DNA from: a virus
Taxonomy: Duplodnaviria; Heunggongvirae; Uroviricota; Caudoviricetes
IMG/VR virus record: IMGVR_UViG_2703718841_000004
DNA length: 19,015 bases
Reading direction: 5' to 3' (one strand)
Positions within the stretch are counted from its first letter, which is position 1. Each line of letters opens with the position of its first letter. The notes under the pieces are model-generated. The model ran no database searches. It was given only the letters and a program-made list of their open reading frames with translations, and had not been told where the DNA came from. Positions 2,834 to 17,597 of this stretch are shown one piece after another. The position numbers were made by a program, and so were the translations under genes.

Positions 2834-3112
2834 TCAGCGCCTTCGTAATACAAAGATTTTTGAAACGTTCCCACGAGCACGAACCACCAGCACGCAGAAC
2901 AGCAGGTTAAAAAACACTTCCAGCCAGCCCGTTGCTAACGGGCGACCACACAGATAGCTGAGGGGCGCAAAGGCATACAGCAGCATCAGCAACCAGGCCA
3001 GCCATGACATCAGCGGTTTATGTCTGGAATCACGACGACGATAAAAAAAGAGCGTCAGCACAATAACCGTGCATAACGCCACATTCAGCAATCCGGGAAG
3101 GTTACTTAACAT
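2834..3112 (-). CDS. Small membrane protein of the lysis cassette (antiholin or second holin candidate)
   Basis: 92 aa from the first ATG (MLSNLPGLLNVALCTVIVLTLFF...), preceded by a GGAGG RBS. It has two or three hydrophobic helices and a basic C-terminus (RRR). The ATG overlaps the 3' end of the upstream holin ORF and its stop abuts the endolysin start. Confidence 0.5.
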   Translation of the reverse strand: MLSNLPGLLNVALCTVIVLTLFFYRRRDSRHKPLMSWLAWLLMLLYAFAPLSYLCGRPLATGWLEVFFNLLFCVLVVRARGNVSKIFVLRRR

Positions 3113-3494
3113 TGCCGCCTCCTCCACCCCGCAGGCGGGAGAACAGGCCGGACACCAGCGATGCAATATCCTGCTGGTGGATGAACGAGAGAATCTTCAC
3201 CGACACCACCGCCACCAGCACCGCACACAGAGCATCCGCCGATGTACCGTCATAACCTGTTTTTGATGCAATCCAGGCTGACAGCACATGCGCACCCAGC
3301 ACGCCAACGATAAACGACACCAGAAAATGCGCTGCCACACGCCAGGCAGATAGTGCCTGCGGCATTGTGGCCACAAACAGCGCCCCGGCAAATGCGCCAA
3401 ACACAATCCCGAAATCCGTTCCGGTAAACAGCCCGAATACCGTCGCCCCGCCGAGCGCCGCAGCCGTGCCGGAACCGGATAAGGGTTCAGACAT
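3102..3494 (-). CDS. Putative holin (multi-pass membrane protein, Gly/Ala-rich TM helices)
   Basis: 131 aa from ATG 3494 (MSEPLSGSGTAAALGGATVFGLF...), with an RBS GGAG 7 nt upstream. The ORF-track start further upstream is not an ATG. It is the first gene of a holin/membrane-protein/endolysin arrangement. Confidence 0.55.
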   Translation of the reverse strand: MSEPLSGSGTAAALGGATVFGLFTGTDFGIVFGAFAGALFVATMPQALSAWRVAAHFLVSFIVGVLGAHVLSAWIASKTGYDGTSADALCAVLVAVVSVKILSFIHQQDIASLVSGLFSRLRGGGGGNVK

Positions 3495-5128: not shown

Positions 5129-5284
5129 AGGATGATCCTTTTTCTATGTGAATCATCACCACTGCTGACGCCAATCAGTATGGTGGTGAACTGTGCAGGG
5201 TTGGCGTAACCGGGAAAAAGGAACCGGCGCGGATCGCTCCGCCCCCACACAGCCCACCATTGAGATGTGACAGTGCAAACGACA

Positions 5285-5307
5285 ATAAAAAAGACGCTGG
5301 CGCGTCT
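5285..5307 (-). terminator. Candidate tR' (intrinsic terminator downstream of Q and of the putative late promoter)
   Basis: Perfect stem AGACGC/GCGTCT (5292-5297 / 5302-5307) with loop TGGC; on the minus strand it is followed by TTTTTATT. It lies about 95 bp downstream of the Q stop. Confidence 0.5.
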
Positions 5308-5367
5308 GTTGTCGCCTTTTTCATCCGGGACGCCAATCCCGACGCCAGATTTTGCTGGCGCGTGAGG

Positions 5368-5397
5368 AATATAGCCCCGGACAATGTGTCTGGTCAA
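5368..5397 (-). promoter_or_regulatory. Candidate late promoter PR' (sigma70-like -35 TTGACC, 18-bp spacer, -10 TATATT) just downstream of Q
   Basis: The reverse complement of 5392-5397 is TTGACC and that of 5368-5373 is TATATT. The position (5 nt after the Q stop, about 70 nt upstream of the candidate tR') mirrors the lambda PR'-qut-tR' layout. Confidence 0.35.
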
Positions 5398-7658: not shown

Positions 7659-7814
7659 TTACTCCTCAGGTTCGTAAGCTGTGAAGACAGCGACCTCCGT
7701 CTGGCCGGTTCGGATTCGTACCTCGCAGAGGTCTTTCCTCGTTACCAGTGCCGTCACTATGACGGTTAAACAGATGACGATCAGGGCGATTAACATCGCC
7801 TTTTGCTGCTTCAT
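7659..7814 (-). CDS. hokD: Hok/Gef-family type I toxin (HokD/RelF-like small membrane toxin)
   Basis: 51 aa, MKQQKAMLIALIVICLTVIVTALVTRKDLCEVRIRTGQTEVAVFTAYEPEE, recognised as HokD/RelF. RBS AAGGAG upstream of ATG 7814. Confidence 0.85.
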   Translation of the reverse strand: MKQQKAMLIALIVICLTVIVTALVTRKDLCEVRIRTGQTEVAVFTAYEPEE

Positions 7815-7871
7815 AGCCTGCTTCTCCTTGCCTTCCGGCACGTAAGAGGCTAACCTACATGTGTCTAGCAT
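7659..7871 (-). CDS. mok: mok (overlapping reading frame whose translation is coupled to hok)
   Basis: 70-aa frame starting at ATG 7871, running in frame into and ending with hok; this is the canonical mok/hok overlap. Confidence 0.5.
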   Translation of the reverse strand: MLDTCRLASYVPEGKEKQAMKQQKAMLIALIVICLTVIVTALVTRKDLCEVRIRTGQTEVAVFTAYEPEE

Positions 7872-7930
7872 GAAATTGGCCTCAGATTAATGTTAAGCGT
7901 CTTGCAGGACGCGTAATGTTAACTGGGGCT
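7863..7930 (+). ncRNA. sok: Candidate Sok antisense RNA (antitoxin) of the hok/sok module
   Basis: Inferred from hok/sok architecture. On the plus strand a possible -35 TTGCCT (7828-7833) and -10 TAACCT (7851-7856) precede the region antisense to the mok start and RBS, with a stem-loop GCGTC-TTGCAG-GACGC at 7907-7922. The boundaries are not established. Confidence 0.25.
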
Positions 7931-8392
7931 TTTCTCTATCTGCCGTTGGTGTTCATGCCCGAGGCAGATAGCCTCAAGCACCCACAGCCATTCTACTTAA
8001 CTACCGTTACCTCGCCAACATGAAATCAATCAGAAAGGCGAACCATAAGAACAATAACAACAATTAAATTCATTTTCTCAAATCCTGTTAACGACGCCCA
8101 TCCGACACTAACAACTTTCATTTATTATACTATTTCCCCATCGACGCTCTGCGTTGGCATAACACAAATCTGTCTGTCCGTTTGGGTAAAGAGCGGATAT
8201 CTGCAGTTTCAAAGAAACTGCGCATGCACACGAACTATCAAAGATAGTGATAACTGAGATAAAAACATATGGAAGCCTTCGGCATTTAAAAATAACAGCA
8301 AATCATATAAAAGGAAAGAGATAAGCAACATTTACATAACATGTATCACGATACGCCCCAGTGTTAATAAAAAGACTATCACTTTATTCTTT

Positions 8393-10896: not shown

Positions 10897-11979
10897 TTAC
10901 CCCCTGAAGCCCGGCGGAATTTCGTTATCCGGTTCAGAAATATGATTCACACAACGCTGGTTGTTCGTGCCGCTTACCGGGAGCAACCAAGGGTTCTCAA
11001 AATTCCGGTCCGGTCCCAAAAACGTCGTCGCTCGCTGAACAAATTCCGTTCCCGTTTTCCCGGTAGCCGCCAGGTATCTTGCGTAACGCCTCACACCATC
11101 CAGCATGGCCTCTGGTGGCACCCCCTCGCGTAATCTGGCTTTCCAGGCACTGAAAGCGGATTTCTTCGGGTTTGCCCCGGCACGCAACGGGTATTCCCGC
11201 CAGACCTGTTCGAACACATCAGGATAATCCACTCGTCCCACAGGCTGCCCGGTGTTTTCCGGGACTACCCGATCGGCTTCCCGCTGAATGGCGGAATCGG
11301 CTTCAGGCTGCTGAAGTTGGTGTGATTGCTCCTGCCTTGCGGTCATCACCTGCTGCACAGCGCCCGAATCGGCTTTCAGCGCATACGCTGAATCGGCTTC
11401 CGGTGTCGTGCCTGCTGGCTGACCAAGATTGACGGTCTGAACATCCCCTGCCTGGTTCGTGGCGTTTTTTACGCCATGGACCATAGTGTTTTGATCTTCT
11501 TGATCTGTATCTTTATCTGTATCTTTATCTGTATCTTTATCTGTCGTGACTCGTCGTGACATGTGCGTGACATTTCGTGACTCGCCGTGACAATCGCCAT
11601 TTTGTTCCCGCTTTCTTTCCCTCTCTCGCTGCGCCCTCTTGCGCTCTGCCGGAGATTTTGCGGTTTGCGAAATATTGCCGTTGTCCTCTTTCAGCACCTG
11701 GCGTTTTTCCCATCCAGTGATTAAATCACCATCAAGTACCCGCCCCTGCATCGTCTGCAAAATTGAATCAATTACCTCTTCTGTCACGTCGAGCGCACTT
11801 GCCAAATCTTCTGTCGTGACATCAATGTGACCTCGCGTGACATTTCGTGACGCGCTCACCAGGAGGTGGATATACACTGCCATCACTGTTGCAATTGGCT
11901 GCCCTGACACCCTGGCAATTGTTCGCCACTTAGGGTCATTTGGCATGTCATGCCATAATCTGAGCCAGGCGTTAGCCAT
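10897..11979 (-). CDS. Putative phage replication initiation protein (O-like) containing the origin iterons within its coding sequence
   Basis: About 360 aa from ATG 11979 (MANAWLRLWHDMPNDPKW...), RBS AGAGG. It lies downstream of the Cro-like and CII-like genes, where lambdoid phages place O. Iteron arrays and an AT-rich tandem repeat sit inside the ORF. The family assignment is not confirmed. Confidence 0.6.
   Translation of the reverse strand: MANAWLRLWHDMPNDPKWRTIARVSGQPIATVMAVYIHLLVSASRNVTRGHIDVTTEDLASALDVTEEVIDSILQTMQGRVLDGDLITGWEKRQVLKEDNGNISQTAKSPAERKRAQRERERKREQNGDCHGESRNVTHMSRRVTTDKDTDKDTDKDTDQEDQNTMVHGVKNATNQAGDVQTVNLGQPAGTTPEADSAYALKADSGAVQQVMTARQEQSHQLQQPEADSAIQREADRVVPENTGQPVGRVDYPDVFEQVWREYPLRAGANPKKSAFSAWKARLREGVPPEAMLDGVRRYARYLAATGKTGTEFVQRATTFLGPDRNFENPWLLPVSGTNNQRCVNHISEPDNEIPPGFRG
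11503..11544. repeat. AT-rich 12-bp tandem repeat (ATCTGTATCTTT x 3.5); candidate DNA-unwinding element of the origin, encoding a (TDKD)n segment
   Basis: Exact tandem copies at 11503-11514, 11515-11526 and 11527-11538, plus a partial copy at 11539-11544. Translated on the minus strand this gives TDKDTDKDTDKDTD. Confidence 0.6.
11545..11591. repeat. Iteron array 1: five direct CGTGAC hexamers at about 10-11 bp phasing (candidate initiator binding sites of ori)
   Basis: CGTGAC at 11545, 11555, 11566, 11576 and 11586, with spacings 10, 11, 10 and 10 bp, directly adjacent to the AT-rich tandem repeat. Confidence 0.55.
11815..11851. repeat. Iteron array 2: four direct (C/T)GTGAC hexamers at 10-11 bp phasing; shares an exact 17-bp repeat with array 1
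   Basis: Hexamers at 11815, 11826, 11836 and 11846. GCGTGACATTTCGTGAC is identical at 11565-11581 and 11835-11851. An inverted copy GTCACG lies at 11784-11789. Confidence 0.5.
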
Positions 11980-13523: not shown

Positions 13524-13679
13524 ATGGATACTATCGATCTTGGCAACAACGAATCTCTGGTGTACGGCGTGTTTCCCAACCAGGACGGCACATTCACCGC
13601 GATGACGTATACCAAAAGCAAAACGTTTAAAACCGAAAATGGTGCCCGTCGCTGGCTGGAAAGAAACTCAGGTGAGTGA
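13524..13679 (+). CDS. ydfA: DUF1391 small protein (YdfA-like)
   Basis: 51 aa from ATG 13524 (MDTIDLGNNESLVYGVFPNQDGTFTAMTYTKSKTFKTENGARRWLERNSGE), RBS GAGGT. It is the first gene of the early-left operon, as in Qin (recalled). Confidence 0.65.
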   Translation: MDTIDLGNNESLVYGVFPNQDGTFTAMTYTKSKTFKTENGARRWLERNSGE

Positions 13680-13680
13680 T

Positions 13681-13809
13681 ATGGATTTCGACACAATCAT
13701 GAAAAAGGCTTACGAAGAGTACTTCGAAGGCCTTGCCGAAGGCGAAGAGGCTCTCAGCTTCAGTGAGTTTAAACAGGCGCTTTCCAGTTCGACAAAATCT
13801 ATCGACTAA
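13681..13809 (+). CDS. Small hypothetical protein (42 aa; position and length match ydfB of Qin)
   Basis: ATG 13681 lies 1 nt after the ydfA stop; translation MDFDTIMKKAYEEYFEGLAEGEEALSFSEFKQALSSSTKSID. It is below the ORF-track size cutoff. Confidence 0.5.
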   Translation: MDFDTIMKKAYEEYFEGLAEGEEALSFSEFKQALSSSTKSID

Positions 13810-13820
13810 CGGGGTTAAAG

Positions 13821-13979
13821 ATGGAATTTAAAGATTTACCTCCAGACACTCAGAAAATCGCCGCAGAAACACTGAAATCTCTCATTTTGAACGGGGAGAC
13901 AGAAAAGGTAGATCCAGCTAAAAAACTGGCTCAAGAAATCAGAGAAGCCTTTATTGCTCTTTATCAGTCTTCTCCATAG
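13821..13979 (+). CDS. Small hypothetical protein (52 aa)
   Basis: ATG 13821; translation MEFKDLPPDTQKIAAETLKSLILNGETEKVDPAKKLAQEIREAFIALYQSSP; colinear with the operon. Confidence 0.45.
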   Translation: MEFKDLPPDTQKIAAETLKSLILNGETEKVDPAKKLAQEIREAFIALYQSSP

Positions 13980-14136
13980 CGGCTTGTTTTTCTTCTTTTA
14001 ATATATTGCGAATTGTAATAACTGAATTAGCCGCCTCTGAAGGGGATGACATTTTGCCAGCCCGAATTAACTCAACTGTTAAGTTCAAAGCTGCAACAGA
14101 TGGATAGGTAAATGGGTTAATTAACTTGTCTGACAT
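13951..14136 (-). CDS. Small hypothetical protein encoded antisense to the early-left operon (61 aa)
   Basis: ATG 14136 is preceded by a near-ideal RBS GGAGGA with 4-nt spacing (MSDKLINPFTYPSVAALNLTVELIRAGK...). Its 3' end overlaps the plus-strand ORF 13821..13979 by 29 nt. Confidence 0.35.
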   Translation of the reverse strand: MSDKLINPFTYPSVAALNLTVELIRAGKMSSPSEAANSVITIRNILKEEKQAAMEKTDKEQ

Positions 14137-14620
14137 TTTATCCTCCATTGAGGTTCTGGGTTAAAAATGGAGACCAACATGCTGCCACATGTGGTCGTGC
14201 GCCGGACACGGATAAGAATCCGGCACTGACAGTTTACTGAAAGGATATATCCCTGAAAAGTCAGGGCATAACGCGAAAGCGCACGGCGAAGTTCGTCTCA
14301 CTGTACGGTGTCGTTAAATTTAATTCGACCGTGCGCTTCCGGTTGTGGCACTCCGCGAAATGGCGCGGCGGTACGTATGGCGGGGTTATTCCTTCCCCCT
14401 GTTGAGGACACCGGGTTGTCAGGTTGACCATACGCCTGAGTGACAACCCCGCTGCAACACCCCATGTTGATTACCTTTTCATTGCTGGCTGATGTCCGTC
14501 CTTTTTAAAGTGAATTTTGTGATGCGGTGAATGCGGCTCAGCGCACGCGGAACAGTTAAAAAGGCCAGTTGACTTCCGTATTGGTTCTTATGGGTGGGTT
14601 CTCTGTATCCGGCGTTAATT

Positions 14621-14634
14621 GTTAACTAGTTAAC
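14621..14634. promoter_or_regulatory. Perfect 14-bp palindrome GTTAACTAGTTAAC upstream of dicB (candidate protein-binding site)
   Basis: Exact reverse-complement symmetry, 56 bp upstream of the dicB ATG, followed by the tandem 7-mers AGGCACC AGGCACC (14644-14657). Confidence 0.3.
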
Positions 14635-14689
14635 GTCACCTGGAGGCACCAGGCACCGCATCACAAAATTCATTGTTGAGGACGCGATA

Positions 14690-14872
14690 ATGGAAACGTT
14701 ATTACCAAACGTCAATACGTCTGAAGGTTGTTTTGAAATTGGTGTCAGAATCAGTAACCCTGTATTTACTGAAGATGCCATTAATAAGAGAAAACACGAA
14801 CGGGAGCTATTAAATCAAATATGCATTGTTTCAATGCTGGCCCGTTTACGCCTGATGCAAAAAGGACGCTGA
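14690..14872 (+). CDS. dicB: Cell-division inhibitor DicB
   Basis: 60 aa, METLLPNVNTSEGCFEIGVRISNPVFTEDAINKRKHERELLNQICIVSMLARLRLMQKGR, near-identical to K-12 DicB as recalled. RBS GAGGA. Confidence 0.85.
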   Translation: METLLPNVNTSEGCFEIGVRISNPVFTEDAINKRKHERELLNQICIVSMLARLRLMQKGR

Positions 14873-14874
14873 CA

Positions 14875-15078
14875 ATGAATACAGCATTTGCACTCGTTCT
14901 GACAGTTTTTCTTAATACAGGCGAACCAGTCGATCTTGTTATTGGTATACATGACTCAATGAAAGAATGCATGGCTGCCGCAGCGGAACAGAAAATTCCC
15001 GGCAACTGTTATCCGGTTGATAAAGTTATTCGCATGGACAATAACGAAATCCCGGCAGGACTTAAAACAGCACCGTAA
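14875..15078 (+). CDS. ydfD: YdfD-like small membrane lysis/toxic protein (DUF1482)
   Basis: 67 aa from ATG 14875 (MNTAFALVLTVFLNTGEPVDLVIGIHDSMKECMAAAAEQKIPGNCYPVDKVIRMDNNEIPAGLKTAP), starting 2 nt after the dicB stop; RBS AAGGA. Confidence 0.7.
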   Translation: MNTAFALVLTVFLNTGEPVDLVIGIHDSMKECMAAAAEQKIPGNCYPVDKVIRMDNNEIPAGLKTAP

Positions 15079-15158: not shown

Positions 15159-17597
15159 ATGAGTAAAGTCTTTATTTGCGCCGCCATTCCGGACGAACAG
15201 GCAATAAAGGAAGAAGGTGCAGTCGCTGTAGCCACTGCCATTGAAGCCGGCGACGAACGCCGCGCCCGTGCCAAATTTACCTGGCAATTCCTGGAGCAAT
15301 ATCCGGCTGCTCAGGACTGCGCTTATAAATTTCTTGTTTGCGAGGATAAACCCGGCATGCCCCGCCCTGCCATCGACTCCTGGGATACCGAATATATGCT
15401 GGAAAACCGCTGGGATGAAGAGTCAGCCTCTTTTGTCCCGATCGAACCAGAATCCGATCCGATGAACGTCAATTTTGACAAGCTGTCCCTTGAAGTACAG
15501 AACGCGGTCCTGGTTAAGTTCGGTACATGTGAAAACATCACCGTTGATATGGTGATTAGTGCACAGGAATTGTTGCAGGAGGACATGGCAACATTCGACG
15601 GGCATATCGTTGAGGCATTGATGAAAATGCCTGAAGTTAACGTCATGTATTCAGAACTAAAGCTGTTCGCCATCGGGTGGGTTAAACATAAATGTAAGCC
15701 GGGTGCAAAATGGCCTGAGATCCAGACAGAATTACGCACCTGGAAAAAACGTCGCGAAGCCGAACGCAAAGAAACCGGGAAATACACGTCTGTTGTTGAT
15801 CTTGCCCGCGCCAGAGTCAACCGGCAGCACACTGAAAACTCAGCAGGAAAAATCAACCCCGCCACTGCCGCCATTCGTCGCGAATACAAGCAGACATGGA
15901 AAACGCTGGATGAAGAACTGGCCTACGCTCTGTGGCCTGGCGATATTAATGCCGGAAACATTGACGGCAGCATCCATCGCTGGGCAAAAAATGAAGTTAT
16001 CGACAAAGATCGCGAAGACTGGAAGCGCATTTCCGCATCAATGCGCAAACAACCCGATGCCGTCCGCTACGACCGTCAGACTATTTTTGGCCTTGTCCGT
16101 GAGCGTCCGATCGACATTCACAAAGATCCCGTGGCACTGAACAAATACATCACTGAATACCTGGCGACAAAGGGCGTGTTTGAGGATGAAGAAACAGACC
16201 AGAACACTGCTGATATTCTCCAGCCGTCAGCAGCACAAACTGATGCAGTGGAAACTGAAGTATCTGATACCCAAAAAAATGAAAGCACGCTGGAAACTGA
16301 ACCATCTGTAGAGCGTGAGGGGCCGTTCTACTTCCTTTTCACCGATAAGGATGGCGAAAAATATGGTCGTGCAAACAAACTTTCTGGTCTGAATAAGGCG
16401 CTGGCTGCAGGGGCTACTGAAATCACGAAAGAAGAATATTTTGCCCGCAAAAACGGCACATACTCAGGTTCACAACAAAATACTGGTGCATCTGACACGA
16501 TCGCACAACCAGAGCCGGTAAAAGTTACCGCTGACGAAGTAAACAAAATTATGCAGGCAGCCAATATCAGCCAGCCTGACGCCAATAAGTTGCTTGCTGT
16601 ATCACGTGGCGAATTTGTTGCAGGGATTAGCGACCCGAATGATCCGAAATGGGTGAAGGGGATTGAAACCCGCGATTCAGTGAATCAGAACCAGAAAGAA
16701 ACGGAACAGAACGACCAGAAAGCGGAACAAAACAGCCCAAATGCGCAACAGGAGCCGGAAAAAGCCTGCACCGCCTGCGGTCAGACCAGCGGCGGCAACT
16801 GCCCTGATTGTGGTGCGGTGATGGGCGACGCAACGTATCAGGAAACCTTTAATGAAGAAAATCTGGATGAATCTCAGGAAAAAGATCCGGAGGAAATGGA
16901 AGGCGCTGAACATCCACACAAGGAGAATGCTGGCAGCTATCAGGACCACGCCAGCGATAGCGAAACTGGCGAGACGGCAGATCCCTTAATTGCGGTGAAC
17001 GGTCATCACGTTATCACATCCACCAGCAGAGTGTGGTACCACCTGATGATCGACCTTGAAACGATGGGTAAAAAAAGTAATGCCCCCATCGTGGTTATTG
17101 GTGCTGTGTTCTTCGATCCGCAGACCGGGGAAATCGGGCCAACATTTTATATCGTTATCAGCCTGGTTGACGCTATGGACACGGGTGCTGTTCCTGATGG
17201 TTCCACCATCGAATGGTGGCTTGCTCAGTCCAGCGAAGCCAGATCTGCAATTTTAGTTGATCAGGTAAAACTGGTTGACGCTCTTATTCAATTTCGGGAA
17301 TTCATCAATGAGTACTCGGATGAAGAATTCGTTCAGGTATGGGGCAATGGTGCAACTTTCGACAACACTATTTTACGAACCTCGTACGAACGCCTGAACA
17401 TCCCCTGCCCGTGGCGTTACTACAACGATCGCGATGTACGTACAATCGTTGAACTGGGAAAAACTATCGGCTTCGATGCCAGAACAGTTATTCTATTTGA
17501 AGGCGTGCGCCACCATGCGCTGGATGATGCCCGTCACCAGGCGAAATACGTTACAGCCACGATACAAAAACTGATCCCGAATCAGGCTGATTTTTAA
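15159..17597 (+). CDS. Large early-left exonuclease: RecE-like N-terminal/central region fused to a C-terminal DnaQ-like DEDDh 3'-5' exonuclease domain, with an internal Cys4 zinc ribbon
   Basis: 812 aa, RBS GAGGT. The C-terminus has Exo I MIDLETMG, Exo II WGNGATFDNTIL and Exo III HHALDDARHQAKY. A CxxC...CxxC motif (CTACGQTSGGNCPDCG) and acidic low-complexity linkers are present. The segment LLAVSRGEFVAGISDPNDPKWVKGIETRD resembles the RecE central region as recalled. Confidence 0.8.
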   Translation: MSKVFICAAIPDEQAIKEEGAVAVATAIEAGDERRARAKFTWQFLEQYPAAQDCAYKFLVCEDKPGMPRPAIDSWDTEYMLENRWDEESASFVPIEPESDPMNVNFDKLSLEVQNAVLVKFGTCENITVDMVISAQELLQEDMATFDGHIVEALMKMPEVNVMYSELKLFAIGWVKHKCKPGAKWPEIQTELRTWKKRREAERKETGKYTSVVDLARARVNRQHTENSAGKINPATAAIRREYKQTWKTLDEELAYALWPGDINAGNIDGSIHRWAKNEVIDKDREDWKRISASMRKQPDAVRYDRQTIFGLVRERPIDIHKDPVALNKYITEYLATKGVFEDEETDQNTADILQPSAAQTDAVETEVSDTQKNESTLETEPSVEREGPFYFLFTDKDGEKYGRANKLSGLNKALAAGATEITKEEYFARKNGTYSGSQQNTGASDTIAQPEPVKVTADEVNKIMQAANISQPDANKLLAVSRGEFVAGISDPNDPKWVKGIETRDSVNQNQKETEQNDQKAEQNSPNAQQEPEKACTACGQTSGGNCPDCGAVMGDATYQETFNEENLDESQEKDPEEMEGAEHPHKENAGSYQDHASDSETGETADPLIAVNGHHVITSTSRVWYHLMIDLETMGKKSNAPIVVIGAVFFDPQTGEIGPTFYIVISLVDAMDTGAVPDGSTIEWWLAQSSEARSAILVDQVKLVDALIQFREFINEYSDEEFVQVWGNGATFDNTILRTSYERLNIPCPWRYYNDRDVRTIVELGKTIGFDARTVILFEGVRHHALDDARHQAKYVTATIQKLIPNQADF

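Follow-up and report, generated by a model that had tools for sequence, protein, structure and literature searches.

A dicBF-type operon leader with a probably degraded, non-canonical dicF allele in a lambdoid prophage

The dicBF leader of K-12 Qin and its counterpart in the window

DicF is a discrete, Hfq-binding RNA of 53 nt that acts as a division inhibitor. In K-12, the 53-nt form is generated by a terminator, and it is accompanied by a 190-nt species with an RNase III-dependent 5' end and a 72-nt species with an RNase III-dependent 3' end (PMC10448788, PMC5069750, PMC9438474), the latter ending 19 nt beyond the end of the 53-nt form (PMC5069750, PMC9438474). A terminated ydfABC-dicF transcript is found in the wild type, read-through accumulates only when RNase E is inactivated, and no evidence for a promoter inside the operon was obtained by Ragunathan et al. 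(PMC10448788). Regulation of xylR requires the 5' region of DicF and regulation of ftsZ the 3' region (PMC5069750). The K-12 leader serves as a processing scaffold, in which RNase III cuts, probably at a long hairpin upstream of dicF and a long-range duplex downstream, RNase E trims the 5' end, and a Rho-independent terminator hairpin supplies DicF with its body as well as its 3' end. A second system of relevance is STnc100, a prophage sRNA known from Salmonella and Stx phages, with PasD reported as a relative.

As judged from its sequence, segment 14137-14689 of the window (the whole 19,015-nt stretch of viral DNA analysed here) is the non-coding leader of an early-left, dicBF-type operon in a lambdoid prophage similar to Qin, Tritos and mEp460. 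The operon order is ydfA, ydfB, orf52, leader, dicB, ydfD, exo, xis, int, and dicB and ydfD follow the leader in matching orientation (Table 1), so that the dicB-ydfD module noticed in an earlier note on this DNA is indeed present. From about position 14195 to dicB the leader is homologous to that of K-12 Qin, as revealed by pairwise and three-way alignments, with identities of 86.6% (14195-14460), 96.7% (14501-14561) and 97.0% (14591-14689). The sole differing part is the dicF slot, which is 34.8% identical; homology on both sides of this slot places the region at the dicF position of Qin, as had been proposed. The two leaders are thus alike in operon position, in their 87-97% identical flanks, in the spacer hairpins, in the downstream dicB and ydfD genes, and in both long duplexes, which lie where the RNase III-dependent ends map in K-12. 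They differ in that the ydfC position of the window is taken by an unrelated 52-aa gene and a minus-strand ORF, and in a variable patch of the spacer (14562-14590) that is 14 nt longer than in K-12; in addition, the prophage in the window appears to be more complete than Qin, with exo, xis and int beyond dicB-ydfD. The 52-aa gene is no ydfC homologue, as K-12 ydfC does not align to it. The start of the 61-aa minus-strand ORF, which had been overlooked previously, adjoins the left end (the first ~60 nt) of 14137-14689.

In a set of 5,426 complete E. coli genomes, the region has matches at 11,243 places, distributed over 4,719 of the genomes. Close relatives include strain EC11, which is 98.2% identical to the window over 13950-14900, and two loci (L043, L002) with 99.1-99.4% identity over about 5.5-6.2 kb. 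The part 5' of the slot, 14195-14458, is conserved to at least 90% across 60 distinct leaders, except for cassette-like variable patches, and is the counterpart of the K-12 190-nt pre-DicF body plus the hairpin ahead of that body. No ORF of at least 30 aa is common to all 60 distinct homologous leaders, the best being present in 36, and a 2-nt indel at 14399-14400, which sets the window apart from most of its relatives, breaks the frames. A coding role is therefore ruled out, in agreement with the earlier description of the stretch as non-coding. Neither a promoter-like nor a terminator-like site was found on the plus strand of 13800-14900.

The earlier note had also called the stretch rich in structure. 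Accordingly, the RNA of 14190-14700 folds at -194.3 kcal/mol compared to -164.4 +/- 7.0 for shuffled sequences (z = -4.26), and none of 100 shuffles folds equally well. Nearly all of the listed signals also occur in K-12 Qin and are thus ordinary features of the leader. By homology, then, the region upstream of dicB is the known RNase III-processed dicBF leader and not a new element.

Table 1. Features of the dicBF-type operon in the window and the evidence for each
Feature	Position	Strand	Evidence or remark
ydfA-like gene (DUF1391), upstream, same operon	13524..13679	+	Pfam PF07151, 98.5 bits; EC11 annotation agrees
ydfB-like small gene	13681..13809	+	phrog_2061, E = 6.9e-25; ydfB in EC11 annotation
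52-aa gene in K-12 ydfC position	13821..13979	+	phrog_9419, E = 5.8e-21
61-aa ORF with GGAGG ribosome-binding site	13951..14136	-	phrog_17494, E = 1.1e-7; hypothetical in EC11
Conserved non-coding leader 5' of dicF slot	14195..14458	+	86.6% identity to K-12 Qin
Long hairpin with variable apical part	14274..14341	+	Basal arms 14274-14286 / 14329-14341
Hairpin GGGTTGTCA / TGACAACCC	14413..14449	+	Perfect 9-bp inverted repeat; helices 6 and 7 conserved
dicF slot, putative remnant of non-canonical C' dicF-type allele	14459..14506	+	EC11/K-12 alignment, slot survey, folding
5' arm of 19-bp long-range duplex	14511..14529	+	Putative RNase III site; repeat search
Structured dicF-dicB spacer	14513..14667	+	Sub-threshold RF02076 (STnc100), 33.0 bits
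Hairpin GGCGUUAAUUG-UUAAC-UAGUUAACGUC, includes palindrome	14611..14637	+	Helix 12, 11 pairs
Hairpin CCUGG-AGGCA-CCAGG	14639..14653	+	Helix 13, nearly invariant; matches STnc100 consensus hairpin
3' arm of 19-bp long-range duplex	14654..14672	+	About 18 nt upstream of dicB start codon
dicB Shine-Dalgarno region GAGGACG	14678..14684	+	Predicted pairing with CGUCCUU 14497-14503 at base of long duplex
dicB	14690..14872	+	Pfam PF05358, 127.5 bits; 91.8% nucleotide identity to K-12 dicB
ydfD homologue (DUF1482)	14875..15078	+	Pfam PF07358, 80.9 bits; 73% identical to K-12 YdfD

Long duplexes and hairpins of the leader

Direct reading confirmed the hairpins GCCGGA 14201-14206 / TCCGGC 14219-14224 and CCCTGA-AAAG-TCAGGG 14251-14266, both of which had been given with correct letters and positions. 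The 10-bp long-range inverted repeat described together with them is real, while its coordinates had been placed 1-2 nt off: the arms are AAGCGCACGG at 14277-14286 and CCGTGCGCTT at 14329-14338, and a repeat search extends them to 13 nt (14274-14286 with 14329-14341, 92% complementary). The basal stem of the resulting hairpin is kept in seven variants that differ in their apical sequences, and two of its pairs (helix 1) show compensatory changes. Because counting 190 nt back from the 3' end of K-12 DicF leads into its 3' arm, we infer by analogy that RNase III cuts in this hairpin to generate the 190-nt species' 5' end.

The strongest structural feature, which had escaped the earlier reading, is a perfect 19-bp inverted repeat (14511-14529 / 14654-14672), forming helix 9 with 21 pairs and 99.6% of cells paired. 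Since the end of the K-12 72-nt species aligns to position 14520 of the window, the RNase III cut for the 3' end maps into 14511-14529, and this arm is probably the corresponding site in the window. Both cut positions were transferred from K-12 via the published RNA lengths and are hence putative. The two arm pairs are present in the window and conserved in 37 leaders, and cleavage at them would presumably take place as in K-12. Thus, among the roles that had been suggested for the region, that of processing sites is retained: the inverted repeat and the 19-bp duplex are both kept in K-12, and the 190-nt and 72-nt ends are likely to fall within them. Across the 37 leaders, 99.5% of the cells in the duplexes pair compared to 34-46% in slid controls, a percentage that is inflated because this alignment had also served to derive the structure. 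Covariation across the leader structure amounts to 3 pairs and 8 cells with double changes, with 9 of 500 shuffles reaching 3 pairs; this signal is weak because the leader sequences are nearly invariant. All other conserved hairpins are likewise intact in the window.

Within the spacer, segment 14513-14667 was matched by the covariance model of STnc100 (RF02076) at 33.0 bits (E = 2.7e-5 with 901 nt searched; positions 21-154 of the model's 206), and the same match, with 31-38 bits, recurred in K-12 and in all nine other loci tested. Membership of the spacer in the STnc100 family was rejected, as 33 bits falls short of the gathering score (47). The match takes in the long outer stem of STnc100, its inner hairpins and the hairpin CACC-GG-AGGCACC-GG-CACC. 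In contrast, their locations differ: a copy of STnc100 is situated downstream of stx2, and PasD near Q (PMC12370729; bioRxiv 10.64898/2026.05.13.724894), whereas the spacer lies upstream of dicB in the early-left operon. The tandem AGGCACC 7-mers (14644-14650 and 14651-14657) had been read correctly; they are not repeats in their own right, being part of the hairpin of helix 13.

The dicF slot and its 14-nt deletion

The dicF slot is located between the gene in the ydfC position and dicB, with conserved leader on both sides, and has the same bounding anchors, GTGACAACCCCGCTGCAAC and AAAGTGAATTTTGTGATG, as its K-12 counterpart. Where K-12 carries the 53-nt DicF, the window has a hairpin-less slot of 48 nt. 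The Rfam DicF model (RF00039) gave no match in the window at the gathering score of 48 bits and none in 13900-14800 even at E<=10, with K-12 dicF scoring 76.7 bits as a positive control in the same search. Similarly, no match was obtained in a locus with the same deletion as the window (L030). In the alignment, the canonical DicF 5' region (UUUCUGGUGACG) and the loop plus 3' region (UUUUACUCCGUGACUG) are replaced or deleted, while the remnant of a 3' arm, CUGAUGUCCGUCC, and the adjoining U-run align with the DicF end in the same slot. The covariance search and K-12 alignment that had been recommended thus yielded no clear DicF, and the earlier failure to recognize a canonical one is borne out.

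Comparison with close relatives accounts for this. EC11, L043 and L002 carry the same slot with 14 extra nucleotides, which form a hairpin abutting the U-run; the sequence absent from the window compared to EC11, TTTGGCGGCATCAG, is the 5' arm of this terminator hairpin. The window retains the loop, at 14477-14488, together with the 3' arm CTGATGTCCGTCC, at 14489-14501, and the U-run, at 14502-14506, and the junction falls within TTTT 14476-14479. From the aligned letters, the 14-nt loss is a deletion between TTT microhomologies. DicF is therefore unrecognizable because the slot holds a rare non-canonical allele, here termed C', which has in addition lost the 14-base 5' terminator arm. Folding is in line with this, as the slot of the window reaches only -3.3 to -5.3 kcal/mol (z = -0.18) with no hairpin beside the U-run, compared to -10.7 to -25.4 kcal/mol for each of the intact slot alleles; the intact C' slot of the EC11 type folds at -18.3 kcal/mol alone and at -21.5 kcal/mol in a longer segment (z = -3.84). 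Likewise, the EC11 slot was detected as terminator-like and that of the window was not.

The identical deletion junction is present in two IMG/VR contigs besides the window, one of them 99.97% identical to it and the other 98.3% identical over 4.1 kb (55 substitutions) and part of a differently mosaic prophage. As the exact junction recurs in these contigs, the deletion is heritable and no read error. The deletion allele was found in none of the 5,426 complete E. coli genomes, and a scan of metagenome contigs gave 0 matches to the junction. Persistence across about 1.7% flanking divergence indicates that the deletion is at least tolerated; it may have been selected rather than reflecting simple decay.

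Taken together, it is highly probable that the window holds a conserved dicBF leader with a degraded copy of the rare C' dicF, in which a 14-nt deletion has removed the 5' arm of the terminator. From the lost hairpin it would be predicted that intrinsic termination at the slot and the terminator/Hfq module are both gone, and that therefore no stable DicF-type sRNA would accumulate from the slot. Transcripts initiated at the early-left promoter would extend without hindrance into dicB, ydfD, exo, xis and int, both duplexes would, by analogy to K-12, still be cut by RNase III, and dicB translation would stay governed by the modelled spacer structure sequestering the ribosome-binding site. A terminator-less fragment with ends cut by RNase III and by RNase E could be stable or active. 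With exo, xis and int located past the terminator, a processive, put-like antiterminator RNA 5' of the slot was also considered but is not supported: nothing of this kind was detected with Rfam, and in K-12 the terminated transcript is present in the wild type, whereas read-through builds up only upon RNase E inactivation (PMC10448788).

Several other readings have to be weighed. The divergent regulatory RNA envisaged in the earlier note would have to act without a terminator hairpin. That both flanking duplexes are intact, that a 190-nt species whose 5' end is due to RNase III builds up in K-12 (PMC10448788), and that the deletion allele occurs in three assemblies differing by up to 1.7% nearby, and so is not rapidly purged, would be compatible with a working trans-acting RNA. 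However, the slot has no stable structure and no terminator-like site, it has lost the U-run hairpin that every other allele possesses, the canonical regions needed for xylR (5') and ftsZ (3') are absent (PMC5069750; alignment), and the allele is very rare in the collections searched, which renders this reading improbable. It is even harder to credit that the 14-nt gap is an artefact of assembly or sequencing and that the prophage in truth carries an intact C' allele. The closest complete genomes do all have the 14 nt, and the deletion does lie beside a T-run. Nevertheless, the two contigs sharing the junction are independent and stem from different genome projects, one of them with the substitutions mentioned above, and a clean 14-nt loss at a TTT microhomology is typical of replication slippage and not of base-calling error.

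Two further readings concern the spacer. The structured stretch might be mainly a cis-acting switch of dicB translation or stability, with DicF production being secondary: the spacer would hide, at the foot of the 19-21-bp duplex, the ribosome-binding site of dicB, which a cut by RNase III would then free. Consistent with such a switch, the predicted pairing partner of GAGGACG (14678-14684) in both the window and EC11 is CGUCCUU (14497-14503), with a probability of being unpaired of about 0 in the thermodynamic prediction, 98% of cells retain helix 8, the spacer flanks are 97% identical to K-12 and hence more conserved than dicB itself (91.8%), and the duplex stops some 18 nt short of the start codon. 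On the other hand, the pairing is a thermodynamic prediction, the helix-8 columns barely vary and thus yield no covariation evidence, the predicted partner of the ribosome-binding site varies by construct in K-12, and RNase III-dependent dicB translation was not found in the literature searched. We regard this as possible and, as the main role, rather unlikely; loss of the terminator arm would then matter for read-through only, so that the switch would complement the degraded C' allele rather than compete with it. By comparison, a role of the palindrome and repeats as DNA sites for a protein controlling dicB transcription, such as a repressor or a restriction or partition factor, appears very improbable. 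The palindrome GTTAACTAGTTAAC (14621-14634), reported correctly in the earlier note and proposed there as a protein-binding site, is a perfect 14-bp one, and the bases around it hardly vary among 37 leaders. Its perfection, however, is due to the central A14628, which is lineage-specific, a G occupying this base in 35 of the 37 leaders; the palindrome is the 3' half of a conserved 11-bp RNA hairpin (helix 12) whose variation is compatible with pairing, and there is neither evidence for a promoter inside the K-12 operon (PMC10448788) nor a promoter-like site on the plus strand of 13800-14900.

Slot alleles in related prophages

Interpreted as a degraded C' allele, the window represents an ordinary case of decay in a system already known: a rare allele and a 14-nt deletion in an otherwise textbook leader explain the missing DicF without recourse to anything categorically new. 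Of more interest is a by-product, the set of unannotated slot alleles. A survey of about 83 slots in 91 sequences revealed at least four families (canonical, B, C/C' and D) along with short and hybrid forms. O55:H7 RM12579 provides an instance of allele B and SE11 one of allele C. Their 5' single-stranded regions and loops are unrelated, and the GGCGG/CCGCC terminator base and the U-run are common to them; the GGCGG...CCGCC hairpin with its U-run is kept in every allele family and missing only in the window and L030. The C' allele is rare, and intact copies of it occur in prophages that share 99% identity with the window. Alleles B, C and D either score under the Rfam DicF threshold or go undetected, the C and D alleles scoring 34-45 bits, and even the intact C' parent allele reaches only 28.6 bits against the gathering score of 48.

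Thus, it might tentatively be hypothesized, at somewhat less than even weight, that the dicF position is a swappable sRNA cassette between two nearly invariant RNase III duplexes, and that its alleles are functional and directed at other targets. If so, the window would hold a decayed C' copy in which terminator loss raises read-through into dicB, exo, xis and int. RNAduplex predictions of the slot alleles against ftsZ (-60..+45, with shuffled controls) had no discriminating power, as even experimentally validated canonical DicF was not significant (p = 0.18). The intact alleles resemble 3'-UTR-derived and intra-operonic sRNAs built around a Rho-independent terminator, such as SroC and CpxQ, in having an operon-internal terminator hairpin with a U-tail and a processed 5' end; the window copy differs by its missing terminator hairpin, and a stable Hfq-binding RNA would not be expected from it.

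Annotation pipelines based on the Rfam DicF model will miss the non-canonical alleles, and DicF copy counts in pathogenic strains may therefore be incomplete. These alleles, of which no description was found in the literature searched (an earlier description of dicF-like variants is possible), may have regulatory targets besides ftsZ, xylR and pykA. The window and its 99%-identical relatives constitute a natural near-isogenic pair with the terminator hairpin absent or present, which could show how far the dicF terminator limits the toxic dicB and the downstream recombination and excision genes, and could also be used to probe RNase III processing of the spacer as a control of dicB translation. 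Among the 5,426 complete E. coli genomes, 3,975 have the canonical slot, at least 139 a slot of type B and at least 108 one of type C.

The dicB leader and its conserved structure

Direct alignment to the Qin prophage of E. coli K-12 reveals unbroken homology from about 14195 up to dicB, and according to the block identities (see the feature table) the non-coding flanks of the dicF slot, the position of dicF between two invariant anchors, are better conserved than dicB itself. Of 5,426 complete E. coli genomes, 4,719 contain matches to the leader region, at 11,243 places in all, and 56 phage records match it too, those of Tritos, mEp460 and Stx2 phages among them; a 2-nt indel sets the window apart from most relatives' leaders. 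The leader is non-coding, and no ORF of at least 30 aa is common to all 60 distinct leaders. As an earlier note had proposed, dicB and a ydfD-like gene lie directly downstream, which is borne out by Pfam and by comparison to K-12 YdfD, and a canonical DicF is absent: Rfam gave no match at the gathering threshold in the window and none at E<=10 in 13900-14800, the same permissive search scoring K-12 dicF at 76.7 bits as a positive control. Homology, the duplexes and the order of genes place the element in the dicBF leader family, whereas it agrees with DicF itself in none of the sequence and structure criteria. What the window holds here is a known system in decayed form, which is nothing unusual.

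The structural richness of the region, likewise remarked upon earlier, is reflected in the RNA 14190-14700, whose folding surpasses that of shuffles by 4.3 standard deviations. Reading of the sequence and a repeat search recovered both short hairpins and the 14-bp palindrome at their proposed positions, and also the two AGGCACC copies, which form a hairpin (CCUGG-AGGCA-CCAGG) rather than tandem 7-mers. The long-range inverted repeat exists as well, but had been placed 1-2 nt off and is longer than the 10 bp described. The repeat search also turned up an inverted repeat of 19 bp without a mismatch, which is the strongest signal and had been missed. Across 37 representative leaders both long duplexes are preserved, and 99.5% of cells pair overall, compared to 34-46% with slid partners, the structure being derived from the same alignment. 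In the 5' hairpin, the basal stem is retained while at least five unrelated sequences occupy the apex. Covariation is weak (3 pairs, 8 cells with double changes), given near-invariant sequences and a structure taken from the same alignment.

Features of the window
Feature	Position	Strand	Remarks
C4 antisense RNA, its a1/b1 target sites, isrK	5179-5374	-	74, 52 and 79 bits, side by side
70-aa ORF	7659-7871	-	
sok antitoxin RNA (Rfam)	7809-7983	-	114 bits, full length
61-aa ORF	about 13951-14136	-	GGAGG ribosome-binding site; weak PHROG matches phrog_17494, phrog_27767
Leader	14195-14460		86.6% identity to K-12; block upstream of slot
GCCGGA/TCCGGC	14201-14206 / 14219-14224		hairpin arms
CCCTGA-AAAG-TCAGGG	14251-14266		hairpin
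Long-range inverted repeat	14274-14286 / 14329-14341		5' hairpin
Slot remnant	14459-14506		loop, 3' arm, U-run
Most of slot	14461-14500		34.8% identity to K-12
CGUCCUU	14497-14503		
Slot flank	14501-14561		96.7% identity to K-12
Inverted repeat	14511-14529 / 14654-14672		perfect, 19 bp
STnc100 match	14513-14667		sub-threshold; also L001 (related locus) 2933-3142 and same position in 9 other loci
Variable spacer patch	14562-14590		24% identity to K-12
Slot flank	14591-14689		97.0% identity to K-12
Hairpin	14611-14637		conserved, 11 bp
Palindrome	14621-14634		14 bp
AGGCACC x2	14644-14657		
GAGGACG	14678-14684		dicB ribosome-binding site
dicB	14690-14872	+	Pfam DicB, 127.5 bits; 91.8% identity to K-12
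ydfD homologue	14875-15078	+	DUF1482; 73% identity to K-12 YdfD
812-aa gene	15159-17597	+	C-terminal Rv2179c-like 3'-5' exonuclease domain

Polymorphism of the dicF slot

The sequence between the two anchors was surveyed in 91 sequences (the window, K-12, E. coli strain EC11, one further E. coli locus, seven genome loci and 80 IMG/VR loci reached via DicB). The slot, located about 190-250 nt upstream of dicB in other loci, is polymorphic across this sample. Folding places a hairpin abutting a U-run in every intact allele (-10.7 to -25.4 kcal/mol); alleles B, C, D, short and hybrid keep the GGCGG/CCGCC terminator hairpin and the U-run, while their 5' regions and loops are unrelated. Loci in which this polymorphism is seen include L011, L013, L014, L049, L054, L006 and L010. 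That intact non-canonical alleles are missed by Rfam is a by-product deserving attention; we found no account of them in the searchable literature. It might tentatively be speculated, at somewhat less than even confidence, that the slot serves as an exchangeable sRNA cassette, with targets that differ between its alleles.

Alleles of the dicF slot (Rfam DicF gathering score, 48 bits; genomes out of 5,426 complete E. coli genomes)
Allele	Slot	Rfam DicF (bits)	Genomes	Places
Canonical	74 nt, contains DicF		3,975	6,700
B	stem GGCGGGUAUC...GAUACCCGCC	no match	139	146
C	GGCGGCAUCAG-UUUCAUUGCUGG-CUGAUGUCCGCC	34.1 and 38.7 (two loci tested)	108	144
C'	type C with CCGTCC replacing CCGCCC	28.6		
D	hairpin of type C save one loop base; longer 5' part	45.4		
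Hybrid	L006	43.5		
Short	L010, L060	no match		

Loss of the window's terminator hairpin

Allele C' occurs in two prophages, L043 and L002 (the latter from strain EC11), which share 99.1-99.4% identity with the window. Its C-to-T change replaces a G-C pair in the terminator stem with G.U and also renders CGUCCUU complementary to the GAGGACG of the dicB ribosome-binding region. By alignment, the slot of the window is exactly C' minus TTTGGCGGCATCAG, 14 nt with TTT microhomology at the bounds, which constitute the 5' arm of the hairpin. Folding of the remnant yields only -3.3 to -5.3 kcal/mol (z = -0.18) and leaves the U-run without an adjoining hairpin, and a terminator scan found no plus-strand terminator-like site in 13800-14900 of the window; EC11 has one. 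The leader scaffold is conserved and the terminator hairpin is gone.

In K-12, dicF is excised from the ydfABC-dicF-dicB-ydfD transcript, and both a terminated ydfABC-dicF and a read-through transcript exist; the 53-nt DicF receives its 5' end by RNase E and its 3' end from a Rho-independent terminator, whereas RNase III generates the 5' end of a 190-nt form and the 3' end of a 72-nt form, 19 nt past that of the 53-nt RNA (PMC10448788, PMC5069750, PMC9438474). Counting the published lengths on K-12 and carrying them over by alignment, the 190-nt 5' end would fall into the hairpin at 14274-14341, on its 3' arm, and the 72-nt 3' end at about 14520, within the 19-bp duplex, on its 5' arm. RNase III would still be expected to cleave at these two duplexes in the window. 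A slot devoid of its hairpin would provide no intrinsic termination and, as the terminator/Hfq-binding module is missing, no stable DicF-type sRNA would accumulate, and nothing would hinder transcription from continuing into dicB, ydfD, the gene for the 812-aa exonuclease, xis and int. This 812-aa gene is intact in the window and annotated as frameshifted in the 98%-identical EC11 prophage.

The deletion junction does not occur in any of the 5,426 complete genomes or in the metagenome collection, but is present in two IMG/VR contigs. Since one of these is 99.97% identical to the window and the other only 98.3% over 4.1 kb, with a mosaic differing elsewhere, the deletion is real and inherited, though rare, and an assembly artefact is hardly credible. 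A residual processed RNA from the loop, 3' arm and U-run might still be active, which the poor folding of the remnant renders improbable. Almost equally hard to credit as the artefact is a protein-binding role of the palindrome: perfect as a sequence, it forms the 3' half of a conserved hairpin, and its perfection depends on A14628, where 35 of the 37 leaders carry G. Distinctly more plausible, albeit still unlikely, is that the region mainly acts in cis as a switch for dicB, which is compatible with loss of the terminator. In both the window and EC11, thermodynamic prediction pairs GAGGACG with CGUCCUU at the base of the long duplex, and in read-through RNA GAGGACG is predicted to be fully paired; thus, it might be speculated that RNase III cleavage is needed to release the dicB ribosome-binding site.

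Spacer, joints and further RNA elements

In the window, K-12 and every other locus tested, the dicF-dicB spacer scores 31-38 bits with STnc100 (RF02076). Membership was rejected, as this is below the gathering score of 47, and the match suggests a distant relationship to STnc100/PasD elements, for which positions downstream of stx2 and close to Q have been reported in Stx phages and related prophages, whereas the spacer lies upstream of dicB.

Homology with other prophages begins at a few sharp joints, at about 14120-14127, 14195 and 14256, and three variable patches of the leader (14290-14325, 14385-14410, 14562-14590) are cassette-like, being swapped among a handful of alternatives between invariant flanks. 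The first, common joint runs through the first codons of the minus-strand 61-aa ORF, which adjoins the left 60 nt or so of the interval 14137-14689 and shares with the 3' end of a 52-aa gene on the plus strand an overlap of 26 nt (29 nt with its stop codon). Elsewhere in the window, the sok match overlaps the 70-aa ORF, the pair looking like a hok/sok-type toxin-antitoxin module, and the cluster of C4 and isrK matches is reminiscent of an antirepressor region under RNA control of the P1/P7 immI type, here within a lambdoid prophage.
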